The notes under the pieces: generated by a model
What the model was told of the DNA's origin: nothing
Seen by the model: the letters and a program-made list of their open reading frames with translations, nothing else
The model's database searches: none
Position numbers and translations under genes: made by a program
DNA from: Promethearchaeota archaeon
GTDB lineage: Archaea > Asgardarchaeota > Thorarchaeia > Thorarchaeales > Thorarchaeaceae
Length of the DNA stretch: 28,763 nucleotides
Reading direction: 5' to 3'
Assembly: GCA_048940825.1 (NCBI GenBank)
Contig: JBHLOD010000001.1
Coordinates: forward strand, 1 to 28,763
Shown: one piece after another, positions 22,039 to 28,426 of the stretch
Layout: each line of letters begins with the position of its first letter
Position numbering within the stretch: position 1 is the stretch's first letter

Positions 22039-22404
22039 CTAGCCTATCATCGACACCAAGGCACGCTTAAGAGCCATCCTGACAAGCCCCATCGACTCGC
22101 GTGCACCCTCTCCTGCAATCCCCGCCAACACAAGTTTCACGTCGCCTAGGATTGCTATGAAGCCATTGTCAGTGGCAATTGTGACTTCCTTCAACCCTCC
22201 CTTGTCAAGTCCGCTTGCAAGCTGAGATGAATTGGCTGCAATCTTGACAGAAAGATCAGCTATGTCGGAGTGTTTGATTCCCCCAGTTATGGTATGACCG
22301 AAGATCACTTTCCCTTTCGCATCACAGACCACGATGCCTTGTAAGTCCTCATTCGCTGCCATTGTATCGGCAATAACCTGCTCAATCTTCTTCTGATCAA
22401 CCAC
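22039..22404 (-). CDS. Roadblock/LC7 domain protein (divergent)
   Basis: 'GIVVCDAKGKVI', 'L.KGGLKEVTI.T.NG.I', 'MGLVRMALKRA'. GTG start at 22404, 9 nt after GGAGG (the track starts at 22434). Confidence 0.8.
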   Translation of the reverse strand: MVDQKKIEQVIADTMAANEDLQGIVVCDAKGKVIFGHTITGGIKHSDIADLSVKIAANSSQLASGLDKGGLKEVTIATDNGFIAILGDVKLVLAGIAGEGARESMGLVRMALKRALVSMIG

Positions 22405-22577
22405 TTGATACATCCTCCGGGGATGAACTTGCACGCTATCAGACGTTTGAAGATGTCGTGTTTATATCTTATGTGTTAGTACTTTGTCCGATTTGCAGCT
22501 CCATGAGAGCACAACCGTAGCTGAGTTTTTATCCACAAAAGTGAACCATGGCCCAAGACTTTTGGAGTCGGTTATGA

Positions 22578-24209
22578 ATGCCTATGCTAAGAACTAGTTC
22601 GGAGGCTTTTCCGGCCTCCAAGAAGGTCCTTGGTGACCTTCCGTACGTCTTGCGTGTCGAGTTTGGAGACTTAGCACGCGACGTAACCAAGATTGTCGGC
22701 AAGCCCATAGCTTGCCAAAAATGCAATGGCTTTCTTCTAAGTGTAGATCAGATAAAGGACGACGACAAGGTTGGAAAACACTTCGTCTGTCCTTTCTGCG
22801 GAACACTGAACGTTATAGAAGGCGAGATTGTAGTAGCAGGTGATGACACGGACTTCGTTGTCGAAACGCCGCCCGAGAGGACCGAGGCCGACACGGACAT
22901 CATCTCGGTAGGAGGTAGGTCCTTCTTAGGACTGATTGATGTTTCTGGGTCGATGGCTGGGGCGAATCTTGCTGCGGTGAAGCGCAGTCTGAACACGTCT
23001 ATCGACAGCTTGGCCGCCAACGCACCCGACACTATGTTTGGGCTCATAGAGTTCGAGAGCTCAGTCCTGTGCAGGAATCTCGAAACCGGCGAACCCGTAG
23101 AACTCCCTCGAGAGTCTTTCATGAGCTTCGACAACATCACGGATGCAACCAAGCTTCTATTGGACCAGATTAAGCTAGTTCAGGTCGGTGAGAATGCTGA
23201 TAATCTGAAGAAACATGTCTCAGCCCTTAGAGACCAAGGAGGAACAGCTCTTGGTCCTGCTGCTGCCATGGCATATGTGATTGCCAAGCACAGGAATGTC
23301 GGTCGTATAGTGCTGCTCACAGATGGACTTGCGAATGAGGGAATTGGCGCCCTTGAAGGCTACCAGGTCACTCCTGCGGGCAGTTTCTATGAAGACCTTG
23401 GGGACAAGTTCAGGGAGCTCGGTGCTGCCGTTGACGTTGTCGGTATCGCCTCTGGTGCTGGAATGGAACTCAAGACCTTGGGTCTAATGCCTGAGGCCAC
23501 AGGAGGCACAATGTATTACGTCACACCCAATGAGCTTGATAGGAGTCTTTCTGAGCTTGCCGGAGCTGAACTACTGGGTCGTGATGTTGAGGTGAAGCTC
23601 ATCACACCCGCTGGCGTGCGCCTTAAGGATGCTTCAGGAGCCTCTAGAGCCGTACTTGACGAGCTGAGGAAGAAGGGCGGTGGCAAGATTGGGGTGGTAG
23701 GAGAAGACCACGAGCTCTACTTCGAGATTGAACCCGAGAAGAAAATCAAGGATGAAGAGGTTCCAATCCAAGTTCAGGTGGCCTATACTGATGAGGAAGG
23801 TGCCCGAAGAGTCCGTGCCGTCACGACAAAGCTGCGCGTGTCTGAGAAGGAGGACGAGATCATGAAGACCCTCGACCCAACCGTGGGTGCAACCTTTGTC
23901 ACGCAGAAGGCTGGCGAGGACGCAATCAGGGGTGAGAGATCCAAGGGCAAGAAACGCCTCGAGTCCTTCCGTTCTGCTATGAAGGCACGAACGAAGGCCG
24001 CACCTAAGGCCGTAAAGACAATGCTGGAGAAGGCCGACCGTGTTCTAGAAAGAGAGGAGGAGGAACTCGAGATTCAGGAGGCGCGAATGGCAGCCGCACC
24101 CGCAAGAGGTGCAGCCCCGTCTGCCGCCGCTGACATGTCTGCCGTAGAGAATCTAGCGCAGATGAAGAGGAGTTCGAAGAAGATCTTTGATGACGAAGAT
24201 GAAGAGTAG
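22578..24209 (+). CDS. Sec23/Sec24-like protein: zinc finger + vWA trunk + beta-sandwich + partial helical domain
   Basis: 'PIACQKC...FVCPFCGTLN' zinc finger; 'LIDVSGSM', 'GGTALGPA', 'IVLLTDGLANEGIGAL', 'FYEDLG....G.AVDV', 'TGGTMYY'; beta-sandwich 'IQVQVAYTDEEGARRVRAVT'; 'LDPTVGATFVTQKA' resembles the start of the Sec23 helical domain. Confidence 0.8.
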   Translation: MPMLRTSSEAFPASKKVLGDLPYVLRVEFGDLARDVTKIVGKPIACQKCNGFLLSVDQIKDDDKVGKHFVCPFCGTLNVIEGEIVVAGDDTDFVVETPPERTEADTDIISVGGRSFLGLIDVSGSMAGANLAAVKRSLNTSIDSLAANAPDTMFGLIEFESSVLCRNLETGEPVELPRESFMSFDNITDATKLLLDQIKLVQVGENADNLKKHVSALRDQGGTALGPAAAMAYVIAKHRNVGRIVLLTDGLANEGIGALEGYQVTPAGSFYEDLGDKFRELGAAVDVVGIASGAGMELKTLGLMPEATGGTMYYVTPNELDRSLSELAGAELLGRDVEVKLITPAGVRLKDASGASRAVLDELRKKGGGKIGVVGEDHELYFEIEPEKKIKDEEVPIQVQVAYTDEEGARRVRAVTTKLRVSEKEDEIMKTLDPTVGATFVTQKAGEDAIRGERSKGKKRLESFRSAMKARTKAAPKAVKTMLEKADRVLEREEEELEIQEARMAAAPARGAAPSAAADMSAVENLAQMKRSSKKIFDDEDEE

Positions 24210-24218
24210 TCACACGCA

Positions 24219-24256
24219 TGAGTGACGCTGACCAACCTCGCGTCACTCAGTTTTTT
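24219..24256 (+). terminator. Stem-loop plus T-tract terminator after the Sec23/24-like gene
   Basis: TGAGTGACGC (24219-28), 11-nt loop, GCGTCACTCA (24240-49), then GTTTTTT. The perfect 10-bp stem begins 9 nt after the stop codon. Confidence 0.7.
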
Positions 24257-24394
24257 CTGAACCTCGGCGTGGAATGCGCAACCTTTTGCGCAAACGAGCT
24301 ATTTTGAGACGAGAACATCATCAATAGTCTAAAATACCCAACTGCGGCGTTAGGAGTTGTCAAATGCAGATTTGACTGCAGCGGAGATTCTATA

Positions 24395-24685
24395 TTGATA
24401 AGCCAAGAGCGCCTCAAGAGCATCATCGACCGACTCAAAGCACAGGACGGTGTCCGTGGAGTCGTTGTGACTACCATGGAGGGCTTGCCCCTGAGTAGCG
24501 ATCTTGACCAAGAAACCACCGAGAATGTCGCTGCAATCATAACCTCTCTTGTGGGAAAGGCACTGGACACGGTGCGACTCCTACGGGAGGGTGCGCTGTC
24601 CTTCCTCACGCTGGACACAACACAAGGTCAAATAAACATCGCACCGGAAGAACAAGAGGGCCTGATATTAGTGGTCCTCAAGTAG
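24395..24685 (+). CDS. Roadblock/LC7 protein, dynein light chain roadblock (DYNLRB)-like
   Basis: 96 aa: 'RLKAQDGVRGVVV..MEGLPLSS.LD..TT', 'KALDTVR', 'LSFL', 'I.IAPE'. Lacks the last helix of MglB-type roadblocks. TTG start after GGAG. Confidence 0.85.
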   Translation: MISQERLKSIIDRLKAQDGVRGVVVTTMEGLPLSSDLDQETTENVAAIITSLVGKALDTVRLLREGALSFLTLDTTQGQINIAPEEQEGLILVVLK

Positions 24686-24709
24686 AACTACTGTTAAGGG
24701 GTTGTAACC

Positions 24710-25180
24710 ATGAGTGATCCAAAAGCGTTCGACAAGATCCTCACCGACATCATACGCCAGGACAAACACATCAAGAAGGTAATCCTGGTAGACAAGACTG
24801 GCTTGACCATAGCCAATGTAAGCAAGCTCTCGTATTATCCTGTGGATGTTGATTCCATCGGCGCGATTGCAAGCGCAGTGTTCTGTGCCAGTGAGGAGCA
24901 GGGCAAGAACCTCCAGATTGGTGAGCTGGAGATTGTGACCTCTGAGTTTTCAGAGGGTAAGATATTCGCTTCCGCCTGTGGGAAGGGCGTGCTCTGTGTC
25001 GTATCTGACCCTGAGGTCAACATCGGTATGGTCCGCCTGGTCATGAAGAAGCAGGGCGTACAACTTGCCGACGAGCTAGACAAGTTCTTGGCAGTGGAGC
25101 CTCTCACTCCCTCTGACAAGGACAAGGAGATTGACGAGGAAGATCTCAAGTCTGCCCTGGCAGAGCTTGAAAGAGTGTAG
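24710..25180 (+). CDS. mglB: MglB-like roadblock GTPase regulator with C-terminal acidic helix
   Basis: 'VILVDKTG', 'NIGMVRLVMKK' and C-terminal 'EIDEEDLKSAL' parallel Myxococcus MglB as I recall it ('VFLVDKNG', 'SLGLVRLRIKK', 'EMSDDDIDNLF'). Directly upstream of the MglA-like GTPase. Confidence 0.75.
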   Translation: MSDPKAFDKILTDIIRQDKHIKKVILVDKTGLTIANVSKLSYYPVDVDSIGAIASAVFCASEEQGKNLQIGELEIVTSEFSEGKIFASACGKGVLCVVSDPEVNIGMVRLVMKKQGVQLADELDKFLAVEPLTPSDKDKEIDEEDLKSALAELERV

Positions 25181-25324
25181 TTCGGGCACAAGTTTCCCCA
25201 ATGAGCCTCAATTGTGCCACAAAGGCTTTTATGAGACCACACTTTTAACACATCCACCCCCGAAGCAGGGCCTCTGGCTAGGGACCGGAAGAGCAGAAGC
25301 AGCGACGTACTGAGGTGAACAGCG

Positions 25325-25888
25325 ATTCGTAAAGACGACAAAGGGCGCATCCATCTGAAGTTGGTCTTCTATGGACCGTCTCTTGGAGGTAAGACGACTG
25401 CACTCCGATGGCTCTACGGGAAGGTCGAGGGGCTTCAGAAGGGCGAGTTCACTGCAATTGAGGATGAGACCAACCGCACGCTCTTCTTCGACTATGTACC
25501 GATGAGCGCAGGAGGGCGCGTTCTGTTTGACGTCTTCACGGTGGCAGGTCAGAAACGTCACCGACACCAGAGGAAGGTTGTACTTCAGGGGACTGATGGA
25601 ATACTGTTTGTCGCAGACTCATCACCTGATCAGAGAGATGAGAACACTGAGAGCTTCGAGGAGCTGAAGTTGTTCCTGGGCGACGCGTTGGGTCGTGAGA
25701 TTCCCATTGTCGTCATGTTGAACAAGCGTGACCTACCGAACAGGATGTCGCGCGATGAGATGCTCGACCTGCTTGGTCTTGGTGGGAATGTGCCAATCTA
25801 CGAGACCATCGCAGTCCAGGGCGTAGGAGTTAAGAGGGCGTTCCAAGCCATAGCGCGAGAAGTTATCTTGAAGAGAATGTACAAGTGA
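25325..25888 (+). CDS. mglA: MglA-type small GTPase (Ras superfamily)
   Basis: G1 'GPSLGGKTT', switch I 'NRTLFFDY' (intrinsic Arg), G3 variant 'TVAGQ', 'DGILFVADS', G4 'NKRD'. The track start at 25361 truncates beta-1. I propose ATT at 25325, 6 nt after GAGGTGA. Confidence 0.85.
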   Translation: MRKDDKGRIHLKLVFYGPSLGGKTTALRWLYGKVEGLQKGEFTAIEDETNRTLFFDYVPMSAGGRVLFDVFTVAGQKRHRHQRKVVLQGTDGILFVADSSPDQRDENTESFEELKLFLGDALGREIPIVVMLNKRDLPNRMSRDEMLDLLGLGGNVPIYETIAVQGVGVKRAFQAIAREVILKRMYK

Positions 25889-25906
25889 TATTGACAGGTG
25901 AGGCTG

Positions 25907-26278
25907 ATGTCAGAGACCCGCGGAGACACTTTGGAGGGCGTTCTTAACGAATTGCAGGGGAGTATCCCTGAGATTGAGGCCTGTGCAATAGTCAGCGTTG
26001 AAGGACTCCCGATTGTGTCAGCTTTGCCAACAGATGTCGATGAAGCAAAGGTCGCAGCGATGACAGCCGCCATGTTGACCCTTGGAGAGAAGGCTGCAAT
26101 AGAGCTCGGAAAGGGGAACTTGGAGCAGGTCAACATTAAGGGTGTAGAGGGCTGGCTACTCGTGATTCAAGCCGGAATGAACGCATGTCTCACTGTTTCC
26201 ACAACAGCTAGTGCCAAGCTTGGCATGGTCTTTCTTGAGATGAAGAGGGCGGCCGAGAAGGTTTCCCAGATGATCTAG
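25907..26278 (+). CDS. Roadblock/LC7 domain protein (canonical archaeal type)
   Basis: 'IEACAIVSVEGLPIVSALP..VDE.KVAAM.AAML.LGE.AA.EL.KG.LEQV.IKG..G', 'AKLGMVFLEMKRAAEK'. ATG at 25907 after AGGTGA. Confidence 0.9.
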   Translation: MSETRGDTLEGVLNELQGSIPEIEACAIVSVEGLPIVSALPTDVDEAKVAAMTAAMLTLGEKAAIELGKGNLEQVNIKGVEGWLLVIQAGMNACLTVSTTASAKLGMVFLEMKRAAEKVSQMI

Positions 26279-27166: not shown

Positions 27167-28426
27167 GTGGTGACACAGTCTTTTATATTGGCAAACCATG
27201 TCTTCGAGTCTGTTCAGGAGATCATTGCATTGGCCCGAAAGCCAATTGATGTATACCGTGGTCTGATTAACACCGGCATATCCGCAGAGATTGCTCCACA
27301 CATCGATGCAGTCGTAGAAAGGTACTCTGACCATGAGTTTGCAGAACTGAAGCTTTCCCACCATCTGAAACGATTCATTGACATCTGGTCAAAACACGTC
27401 GCACATCTGAATCAACGTGGTTCCGTAGAAATCCCAGACCTTACTGCAGCAATTGACCTGCTTGACTACTTCACATCCACATCAAAGTGGTGGGTCTTGT
27501 CTAGAGATGACCCGGGGCTTGTACTTAGACCCGCTTCTAGAGATCCTCGCAACTTCCTCAAGTCATTGCCACTCATCAACATTGGACAGGGCGCCTCGGG
27601 AAGAGTATCCGGGGCTGCGGAGAAGCTCTCGAGTTTCCTGAAAGAACACAATCTTGGAGCGACGGAATCGCGCATAGACCTACGTCAGCACATCGTTTCT
27701 GTTTGGCTACTACTCAGTGCCTTTGTGTGCAAGAGTCAAGGACGCAGCACTACTGAGGAAGCAGACTTCGAAACAGCGTATGACATTGTACGTGTGTTGT
27801 TCTTCTATACGCCCAAGGATGACTTCCTGGCACTTACTGCGGTACGTCAGATTGCCACGAACCCAACCTTGGCCAAGGCTGCAGAGATCAATTTCGCACG
27901 CGGTTTCGACCGCAAACTCGATTCGTCATTGGCAGCACGACTTGAACGATCTCATGGAGAGTATCTTACCAAGATTGTCAAGTTGACGCCTAGCGCATCT
28001 AGAAGCATTCTTACAAACTCACTTAGAGTCTTGGCACAGCTACAGGCATTGAAGCTGGGTATGAATCGAGTCGAGGCTGATGAGTATGATTCTGTGATAG
28101 TAGGAGCGATGAGTCTACTAGACAAAATAGAGGTTCCTTCAGCCCTGCTTCACGAACAGTCCAAGGTCCTTGAACTATTCAAGAGTCTACAGCCTGCGGA
28201 AGGGGTAGAGGAGAAAATGGCACTTATGAGAAGAAGGATTGAAGGACTCTTGGTAGATTCAACAGGTAACAGAGACTTCTTGCTACAGTTTGCCAAGTTG
28301 ATTCCAAGAATCACAGCATTGCTGCTGCTGCTTGCAGGTGGAACAAAGACTCAACACGGAGACCGACTGCAAGACGCTGATGTGAAAAGAGGCCTAATCC
28401 TACTCAATAGGCTGCTCAATGAGTAG
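27167..28426 (+). CDS. Hypothetical all-helical protein, apparently four ~105-aa AAA+-lid-like repeats
   Basis: Long 419-aa ORF with no stronger competing frame. Recurring '(R/G)..V...D...A..LL'-type helix ends at about aa 91, 200, 305 and 405. No Walker motifs. Confidence 0.7.
   Translation: MVTQSFILANHVFESVQEIIALARKPIDVYRGLINTGISAEIAPHIDAVVERYSDHEFAELKLSHHLKRFIDIWSKHVAHLNQRGSVEIPDLTAAIDLLDYFTSTSKWWVLSRDDPGLVLRPASRDPRNFLKSLPLINIGQGASGRVSGAAEKLSSFLKEHNLGATESRIDLRQHIVSVWLLLSAFVCKSQGRSTTEEADFETAYDIVRVLFFYTPKDDFLALTAVRQIATNPTLAKAAEINFARGFDRKLDSSLAARLERSHGEYLTKIVKLTPSASRSILTNSLRVLAQLQALKLGMNRVEADEYDSVIVGAMSLLDKIEVPSALLHEQSKVLELFKSLQPAEGVEEKMALMRRRIEGLLVDSTGNRDFLLQFAKLIPRITALLLLLAGGTKTQHGDRLQDADVKRGLILLNRLLNE

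Follow-up and report, generated by a model that had tools for sequence, protein, structure and literature searches.

A zinc-finger/MIDAS-vWA protein of Thorarchaeota with a gelsolin-less Sec23/Sec24 core is closer to eukaryotic cpRas-type proteins than to the COPII coat

"Sec23/24-like" proteins are routinely counted among the eukaryotic signature proteins of Asgard archaea and taken to hint at a proto-COPII (coat protein complex II) system. Here, we report on the gene of one such protein, located in a 28,763-nucleotide stretch of Thorarchaeota DNA (contig JBHLOD010000001.1 of assembly GCA_048940825.1), hereafter called the window. Annotated around it are genes for Roadblock proteins, the small GTPase MglA, SMC/ScpAB and a UPP synthase, and the coordinates of the features are collected in Table 1. 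We find that the encoded protein has the domain order of the Sec23/Sec24 core and that its nearest eukaryotic relatives are not the COPII coat but the cpRas-type proteins (for circularly permuted Ras), which combine a zinc finger (ZnF) with a von Willebrand factor A (vWA) domain bearing an intact MIDAS (metal-ion-dependent adhesion site).

Table 1. Features of the window, in window coordinates (ORF, open reading frame; aa, amino acids; Thor, Thorarchaeota; AF2, AlphaFold2).
Feature	Positions	Strand	Basis
Whole gene, ZnF / MIDAS-vWA trunk / beta-barrel / helical protein, 543 aa	22578-24209	+	ORF, Pfam, orthologues, AF2 model
Residues 1-41, N-terminal strands, first part of beta-barrel	22578-22700	+	DSSP, alignment to Sec23A/Sec24 N-terminal barrel strands
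Residues 43-80, Sec23/24-type zinc finger, C46, C49, C71, C74	22704-22817	+	Pfam and conservation
Residues 114-330, trunk (vWA domain)	22917-23567	+	Pfam; Rossmann-like beta/alpha pattern in model
MIDAS loop 1, D121-V-S123-G-S125	22938-22952	+	Invariant in Thor, Asgard and eukaryotic alignments
MIDAS Thr223 in GGT-ALGPA	23244-23246	+	Invariant in 133 family members
MIDAS Asp249 in LLTDGLANEG	23322-23324	+	Invariant in 133 family members
Residues 331-423, second part of beta-barrel (beta-sandwich)	23568-23846	+	Pfam Sec23_BS, model strands 332-422
Residues 424-543, complete helical domain with basic-Ser-Ser-basic motif and acidic end	23847-24206	+	Model, alignment
Putative promoter and ribosome-binding site	22525-22566	+	TTTTTAT about 45-50 nt and GGAG 12-15 nt upstream of ATG; inference only
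Terminator-like element	24220-24256	+	Perfect 9-bp inverted repeat followed by T6; inference only
RoblA, divergent Roadblock/LC7-like neighbour	22039-22434	-	Pfam Robl_LC7 E 0.0012, weak; synteny in about 59 Thor loci
RoblB, 96-aa Roadblock/LC7	24395-24685	+	Pfam Robl_LC7 E 3.9e-15; synteny
RoblC, MglB-like Roadblock, 156 aa	24710-25180	+	Pfam Robl_LC7 E 5e-9; MglB chains 6h5b_B and 6izw_B closest solved
MglA-type small GTPase, probable ATT start at 25325	25325-25888	+	PDB MglA chains 134 bits, E 3e-38
RoblD, Roadblock/LC7	25898-26278	+	Pfam Robl_LC7 E 4.3e-16; PDB 7f8m_A E 6e-23

The reading frame runs through 543 codons without internal stops and, as modelled, encodes a soluble five-part protein in which every part of the Sec23/Sec24 core is present except the gelsolin domain at the C-terminus. 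This Sec23/24-like architecture is real and far above chance. Indeed, Pfam Sec23_trunk matches residues 116-316 (E 1.3e-10, 41.8 bits for a cut-off of 27), VWA and VWA_2 both score over their cut-offs, and Sec23_BS matches residues 336-422 (E 1.5e-7) with 32.3 bits, slightly under its cut-off of 33.5. The best solved relatives of the protein by sequence are Sec24 chains, which also give the best local match to the second barrel segment (residues 331-423). The finger reads C46-Q-K-C49 and C71-P-F-C74-G-T-L-N; zf-Sec23_Sec24 is a sub-threshold match at residues 43-80 (E 0.0026), the four cysteines are kept in at least 90% of 133 family members, and the family profile matches the nuclear magnetic resonance chains of the Sec23A zinc finger (2yrc and 2yrd). 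At the N-terminus, DSSP assigns strands to residues 4-6, 10-12, 23-28 and 37-40 of the AF2 model, and their contribution to the barrel resembles that seen in Sec23/24. The Sec23/24-type finger, the vWA domain with a complete MIDAS and the beta-sandwich, which a preliminary description of the gene had picked out from the sequence alone, are thus borne out by translation, Pfam and conservation.

That description had also limited the region downstream of the sandwich to one or two helices and an Ala-rich tail, which proved wrong. The model has six helices (residues 425-430, 434-450, 454-472, 477-506, 516-529 and 533-542) that together make up the entire helical domain; the stretch rich in Ala and Pro (around 503-515) is one of its internal loops. 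Pfam Sec23_helical finds no match in the 543-residue protein, and the domain is recognised from structure only. Close to its end, K530, S532, S533, K534 and F537 are invariant in 22 Thorarchaeota orthologues; one might speculate that the invariant K-R-S-S-K-K motif and the acidic end form a regulatory tail with a possible phosphorylation site.

The model was computed from an alignment of 133 family sequences, with a predicted local distance difference test (pLDDT) of 94.2 and a predicted template modelling score (pTM) of 0.92, and supersedes a model from 22 close Thorarchaeota orthologues only, which was unusable (pLDDT 46.5). VIA-align superposes it on Sec23A with Z 29.6 and a root-mean-square deviation (rmsd) of 4.0 over 493 of the 543 residues, and on Sec24 with Z 29.5. 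Residues 1-543 map to Sec23A 13-623/624, Sec24A 383-946 and yeast Sec24 179-756. As these ranges stop at the end of the helical domain, the gelsolin domain alone is missing; in agreement with this, and with what had been proposed from the length of the protein, Pfam Gelsolin finds no match in the 543 residues, and the chain stops where the helical domain stops. Pfam identifies no GTPase domain in it either. Against the PDB, the top Foldseek matches are Sec24 and Sec23 chains only (E 6e-30, for Sec24A, to 1e-24; query TM-scores of 0.64-0.74), and the next are the Catenulispora vWA protein 4fx5 (E 1e-17) and ArnB (8s05, E 1e-15). Among Swiss-Prot models, the best fold match is Dictyostelium cpRas1 (Q75J93; E 5e-36, TM-score 0.76, rmsd 4.8, 21% identity, residues 285-815), and about 27 Sec24 entries rank behind it (E 4e-31 to 5e-29). 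The top AFDB clusters by fold are likewise a 512-residue VWFA protein (TM-scores of 0.76/0.81) and a putative cpRas1.

The translation contains the complete MIDAS set of five residues (D121, S123, S125, T223 and D249), and the set is invariant in 22 Thorarchaeota orthologues, in 36 Asgard members and, at the equivalent positions, in 65 eukaryotic relatives. In the family-profile alignment, human Sec24A has D-V-S-H-N in the first loop, a Ser for the Thr and a Gln for the Asp, and the MIDAS of this coat protein is therefore degenerate. The preliminary description had stated as much for coat trunks in general, and for Sec24A it can be seen directly.

The protein has more than 120 orthologues in Thorarchaeota (74-100% identity), including one of Thorarchaeota SMTZ1-45 with 77% full-length identity, which is listed at NCBI as "SEC24 family transport protein". 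A profile of Thorarchaeota orthologues, run against 1.84 billion representative sequences, gave 1183 matches at E <= 1e-3, 668 of them at E <= 1e-10. In the best 150 of the 1183, nearly all full-length proteins have the DxSxS motif and most have a recognisable CxxC...CxxC pattern. About 20 of these 150 are eukaryotic proteins of 690-970 residues that carry a P-loop, GxGGxGKS, at around residues 110-210, upstream of the finger, and the P-loop is restricted to them. The "circularly permutated Ras protein 1-like" entry from Diadema, a sea urchin, scores 136.7 bits over profile positions 24-492; other named relatives are VWFA proteins of Entamoeba invadens and proteins of Platysulcus, Anaeramoeba, Cantina, an acanthoecid choanoflagellate and Willaertia. 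A separate homologue search over proteins of 1697-4845 residues returned one unrelated vWA protein and nothing else.

To gauge how near the family stands to Sec23 and Sec24, we scored PDB chains with each profile separately and compared the bit scores. With the Thorarchaeota-only profile, cpRas-type proteins reach 107-137 bits while Sec24 chains reach 22-31 bits, and no Sec23 chain of the PDB is matched. An Asgard-only profile of 36 sequences gives a median of 232 bits (186-275) on 97 eukaryotic ZnF-vWA proteins and 80-93 bits on Sec24, to which it aligns from position 41: yeast Sec24 scores 93.5 bits, from the zinc finger through the helical domain, Sec24A 87 bits and Sec24C/D less (62-64 bits). 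Sec23/Sec23A score 32-37 bits and ArnB (8s05) 45 bits (E 5.7e-11). In the other direction, the profile of the eukaryotic clade scores the window's protein at 298 bits, Sec24A at 70.6 bits and yeast Sec24 at 57.7 bits, and has no match to ArnB. As the eukaryotic profile is weaker on Sec24 than the Asgard profile, the Asgard family stands, by sequence, between cpRas-type proteins, Sec24 and ArnB. Among 65 long eukaryotic relatives, Pfam finds Sec23_trunk in 54, zf-Sec23_Sec24 in 24 (best E 1.1e-8), Sec23_BS in 14 and Ras in 14, but Sec23_helical or Gelsolin in none. Furthermore, the strings DxSGSM, TALGPA, TDGLANxGxG and TGGxxxxVxP, named at the outset as cpRas-like, turn out to be the consensus of the Asgard and eukaryotic family. 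Altogether, the nearest eukaryotic relatives of the protein are the cpRas-type ZnF-vWA proteins and not the COPII coat, as first suspected and as profiles, fold and phylogeny agree; Sec24 is a more distant relative and Sec23 a still more distant one.

These scores bear on the view that the protein is a proto-COPII inner-coat subunit, i.e. the direct forerunner, or an orthologue, of Sec23/Sec24, brought to the membrane by an Arf/Sar-like GTPase and selecting cargo. The domain order and the fold of the Sec23/24 core (Z 29-30) speak for it, and so does the fact that the Asgard-only profile scores yeast Sec24 higher than the eukaryotic cpRas-type profile scores Sec24 (57-71 bits). Nonetheless, sequence and fold are clearly closer to the cpRas-type family, the MIDAS lost in Sec24 is intact, and with the gelsolin domain the arginine finger of Sec23 is missing. 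We therefore regard such a coat subunit as unlikely.

Phylogeny places the protein in the same way. Both of our trees comprised Asgard, eukaryotic ZnF-vWA and bacterial vWA sequences. In a tree of 153 sequences rooted on bacterial vWA proteins, every sequence from an Asgard genome falls in one clade of 51, with a Shimodaira-Hasegawa approximate likelihood ratio test (SH-aLRT) support of 99, and every named eukaryotic sequence in another of 97 (SH-aLRT 98), inside which the 23 proteins with the cpRas fusion group together as a subclade (support 99). A maximum likelihood tree of 74 sequences with a bacterial vWA outgroup recovers Asgard archaea (100/99) and eukaryotes (100/96) as reciprocally monophyletic, and both clades are monophyletic in 100% of the bootstrap trees. 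The Asgard family is thus the sister group of a pan-eukaryotic zinc-finger/vWA family, and the cpRas fusion is derived and arose inside eukaryotes. Since the window's protein sits in the Asgard sister clade, it is the archaeal counterpart of the eukaryotic family and not a member of it in the strict sense. The label "ancestral form", raised for it earlier as a possibility, is compatible with a tree whose sequences do not include Sec23/24.

Those Asgard-clade sequences that carry a name derive from metagenome-assembled genomes (MAGs) of Hodarchaeales, Promethearchaeota and Hermodarchaeota. Of 400 Asgard species genomes, 147 encode the protein, among them 77 of the 85 in the taxonomic family of the window's genome. 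Two members of this otherwise Asgard-only clade (P0140 and P0143) come from MAGs labelled Eremiobacterota and Armatimonadota, which points to mis-binning or to a transfer to bacteria. Within Thorarchaeota, isolate A361 has a copy that is 45-47% identical and lies outside the SMC/Roadblock/MglA neighbourhood (L065:5001-6605), either a divergent lineage or a paralogue. A complete chromosome from the same genus has, beside the full gene, a second match that covers residues 1-179 only (G369:C1:931706-932242; E 9e-111, open frame of 225 residues) and may be a truncated duplicate.

The trees also speak to the idea that we are dealing with a generic prokaryotic vWA protein (BatA/ChlD/YfbK-like) whose likeness to Sec23/24 is superficial. 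Some database labels of family members do read "Mg-chelatase subunit ChlD" or "YegL", and bacterial vWA proteins are 23-29% identical over the vWA part. Yet these bacterial proteins form a long-branched outgroup (100/100) and have no zinc finger, Sec23_trunk scores over its Pfam cut-off, and the Sec23/24 fold match spans all 543 residues. The preliminary description had named a grouping with generic prokaryotic vWA proteins, with neither a zinc-finger nor a beta-sandwich match, as the result that would speak against it; we looked for it in tree, Pfam and fold and did not find it. We consider this identity extremely improbable, and reject it on the evidence of tree and fold.

In Thorarchaeota, the gene lies in a conserved neighbourhood. 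The order SMC, RoblA, Sec24-like gene, RoblB, RoblC, MglA, RoblD, UPP synthase is found at about 60 Thorarchaeota loci, and the organisation in SMTZ1-45 (L056) is identical to that of the window. The GTPase is of the MglA type (134 bits to the MglA proteins of M. xanthus and T. thermophilus) and is 91-100% identical across these loci, while the Sec24-like protein falls to 51%. Four distinct Roadblock/LC7 paralogues surround this single GTPase (22039-26278); RoblB, a minimal form of 96 residues, also matches LAMTOR5, and RoblD is closest to 7f8m_A. The gap between RoblC and MglA is about 150-250 nt in the window and most other Thorarchaeota genomes and is widened by 0.5-4 kb at seven loci (L013, L016, L019, L030, L036, L042 and L043). 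In the region around its start (25312-25363), the MglA gene lacks an ATG, GTG or TTG codon from the upstream stop (TGA at 25316-25318) to the middle of strand 1. The ATT at 25325 lies 6 nt past a GAGGTGA and aligns with an ATG in 7 of 10 Thorarchaeota orthologues and with an ATT in the other three; the N-terminus read from it, R-K-D-D-K-G-R-I-H-L-K-L-V-F-Y-G, is conserved. The conserved gene order also includes a 419-residue reading frame without a Pfam match (27167-28426), 41-93% identical across loci.

Taking these data together, we favour a reading that we hold to be probable, though by no means secure: the protein would be an Asgard cpRas-type MIDAS adaptor, possibly tied to small-GTPase signalling. 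By analogy with other MIDAS proteins, D121, S123, S125, T223 and D249 would probably hold a divalent cation whose coordination sphere a partner protein would complete with an acidic residue. The zinc finger, barrel and helical domain would then act as a Sec24-like scaffold that offers additional binding surfaces. In Thorarchaeota, the best available guess is that the protein could serve as an adaptor or effector of the MglA-MglB/Roadblock switch. A Sec23-type role as a GTPase-activating protein is excluded, because the domain that carries the arginine finger (gelsolin) is absent.

Several observations weigh against this reading. First, the MglA/Roadblock neighbourhood is absent outside Thorarchaeota, where we inspected 27 loci from 20 Asgard genera. 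A small GTPase lies directly upstream in only two of the 20 genera, which do not have the GTPase family in common: in one Loki-type genus (g70), a Ras-family GTPase (Pfam Ras E 1e-44) precedes the gene on the same strand in four of four genomes (L123:4625-5152, L124, L141 and L142), and in another (g64) an Arf/Ras-like GTPase does so, also on the same strand (L131:5135-5806). A Roadblock gene is directly upstream in a third genus (g50), and a Rab-like GTPase is found 4 kb away in a fourth (g39). These genomes have 40-96 Ras-family matches each, about 1-2% of their genes (73-93 in the two Loki-type genera), so that chance alone would place about 0.4-0.9 GTPases beside the gene over 20 genera; the flanking GTPases are therefore within chance expectation, and we claim no enrichment. 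The relatives P0127, which belongs to the Asgard clade, and P0272, both from outside Thorarchaeota, have no GTPase or Roadblock neighbours; P0275 sits on a eukaryotic contig.

Second, the Sec24-like gene appears to be monocistronic and outside any operon with the GTPase, since signals resembling a promoter and a terminator flank it. The arms of the inverted repeat (24220-24228 and 24240-24248) read GAGTGACGC and GCGTCACTC, are followed by TTTTTT and lie directly past the stop codon. Third, three Asgard Sec23-like proteins were reported to co-precipitate with an Asgard Arf in yeast, weakly and independently of the nucleotide (PMC11914678). The weakness and nucleotide independence of this interaction, like the fact that the GTPase next to the gene is an MglA and not an Arf/Sar protein, also tell against the coat subunit discussed above. 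The fusion of a similar module to a GTPase domain in cpRas proteins had been put forward at first as a Rosetta-stone parallel to the adjacent GTPase gene. This parallel is weak and suggestive at best, because the GTPase is of the MglA and not the Ras type, the cpRas fusion is derived within eukaryotes, the adjacency is kept only within Thorarchaeota, and the gene is apparently monocistronic. The link to the adjoining GTPase is thus, at best, a suggestive, lineage-specific lead.

A broader version of the adaptor reading can be formulated, which we consider possible but doubtful. Asgard ZnF/MIDAS-vWA proteins would be orthologues of a GTPase-associated adaptor family as old as the last eukaryotic common ancestor, today represented by cpRas/VWFA proteins, and Sec24/Sec23 would have come from the same stock by loss of the metal site and gain of the gelsolin domain; the Thorarchaeota protein would be a metal-dependent effector or scaffold of the MglA-MglB/Roadblock polarity switch and thereby a pre-COPII adaptor under GTPase control. 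If this were true, the published "Sec23-like" label would name the wrong eukaryotic descendant as functional analogue.

ArnB, an archaeal regulator with vWA, barrel and helical domains that binds a cation at its MIDAS (PMC12852372), offers another model, in which the protein would be a signalling scaffold switched by phosphorylation, with an ArnA-type zinc finger fused in cis. The 45 bits of the Asgard profile and a structural Z of 25.5 over 363 residues are in line with it, as are the cation of ArnB and the ArnA zinc finger, which is seated on ArnB as in Sec23/24 (PMC12852372); more speculatively, the invariant C-terminal K-R-S-S-K-K of Thorarchaeota could be the phosphorylation site. On the other hand, the likeness to ArnB is far under that to cpRas-type proteins or Sec24, the window has no archaellum genes, and no gene for an FHA-domain protein, a kinase or a phosphatase is found among the annotated neighbours, the wider genome not having been searched. 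We thus judge an ArnB-like role to be distinctly improbable.

In comparison with the proto-COPII hint generally drawn from such proteins, the adaptor reading gives a more cautious picture, in which the archaeal proteins are much closer to the cpRas-type ZnF-vWA family, itself functionally uncharacterised. The two families have in common an invariant predicted metal-binding site that Sec24A lost, and the single domain through which Sec23 regulates a GTPase is missing from the Asgard proteins. The choice of the eukaryotic functional model changes accordingly, and cpRas-type is the more informative label for the protein. The MIDAS residues and, in Thorarchaeota, the MglA/Roadblock partners offer a concrete handle for experiments.

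The gene itself is not new: a protein orthologous to its product has already been published and annotated. A "Sec23-like, gelsolin-less" set of Asgard proteins was published in 2025 in Nature Communications and read as Sec23 precursors, with no mention of the MIDAS or of the cpRas-type family (PMC11914678); the window's protein belongs to that set and is orthologous to the SMTZ1-45 protein, and nothing in it is different. In a literature search without most subscription journals, we found no link between cpRas proteins and Asgard archaea. With respect to Sec24 and Sec23, the order and arrangement of barrel, zinc finger, trunk, barrel and helical domain are the same (Z 29-30 over about 495 residues) at 13-19% identity, but the archaeal protein lacks the gelsolin domain and the long disordered N-terminus of Sec24, and its MIDAS is intact where Sec24A is altered at three of five positions. 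ArnB/ArnE (vWA2) of Sulfolobus acidocaldarius (8s05 and 5a8j) and the Catenulispora protein 4fx5 share the MIDAS vWA, the beta-sandwich and the C-terminal helical domain (Z 22-25.5). ArnB 8s05_A (Z 25.5) is entitled by its depositors "an archaeal ortholog of the Sec23/24 core motif"; it differs by the absence of the N-terminal barrel strands and by a much lower sequence likeness, and in ArnAB the zinc finger comes from ArnA in trans while the window's protein has it in cis. Finally, Elias and Novotny described in 2008 a eukaryotic family whose members join a cpRAS domain to a putative zinc finger of four cysteines and a VWA/Sec23-trunk region, together with paralogues that have no cpRAS domain (PMC2430557). 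These cpRAS-VWA proteins, exemplified by Dictyostelium cpRas1 (Q75J93) and the Entamoeba invadens VWFA proteins, share with the window's protein the four-Cys finger, the MIDAS vWA/Sec23 trunk, the beta-barrel, the helical domain and the lack of a gelsolin domain, whereas the archaeal proteins have neither the N-terminal extension nor the fused cpRAS GTPase and form a separate sister clade.

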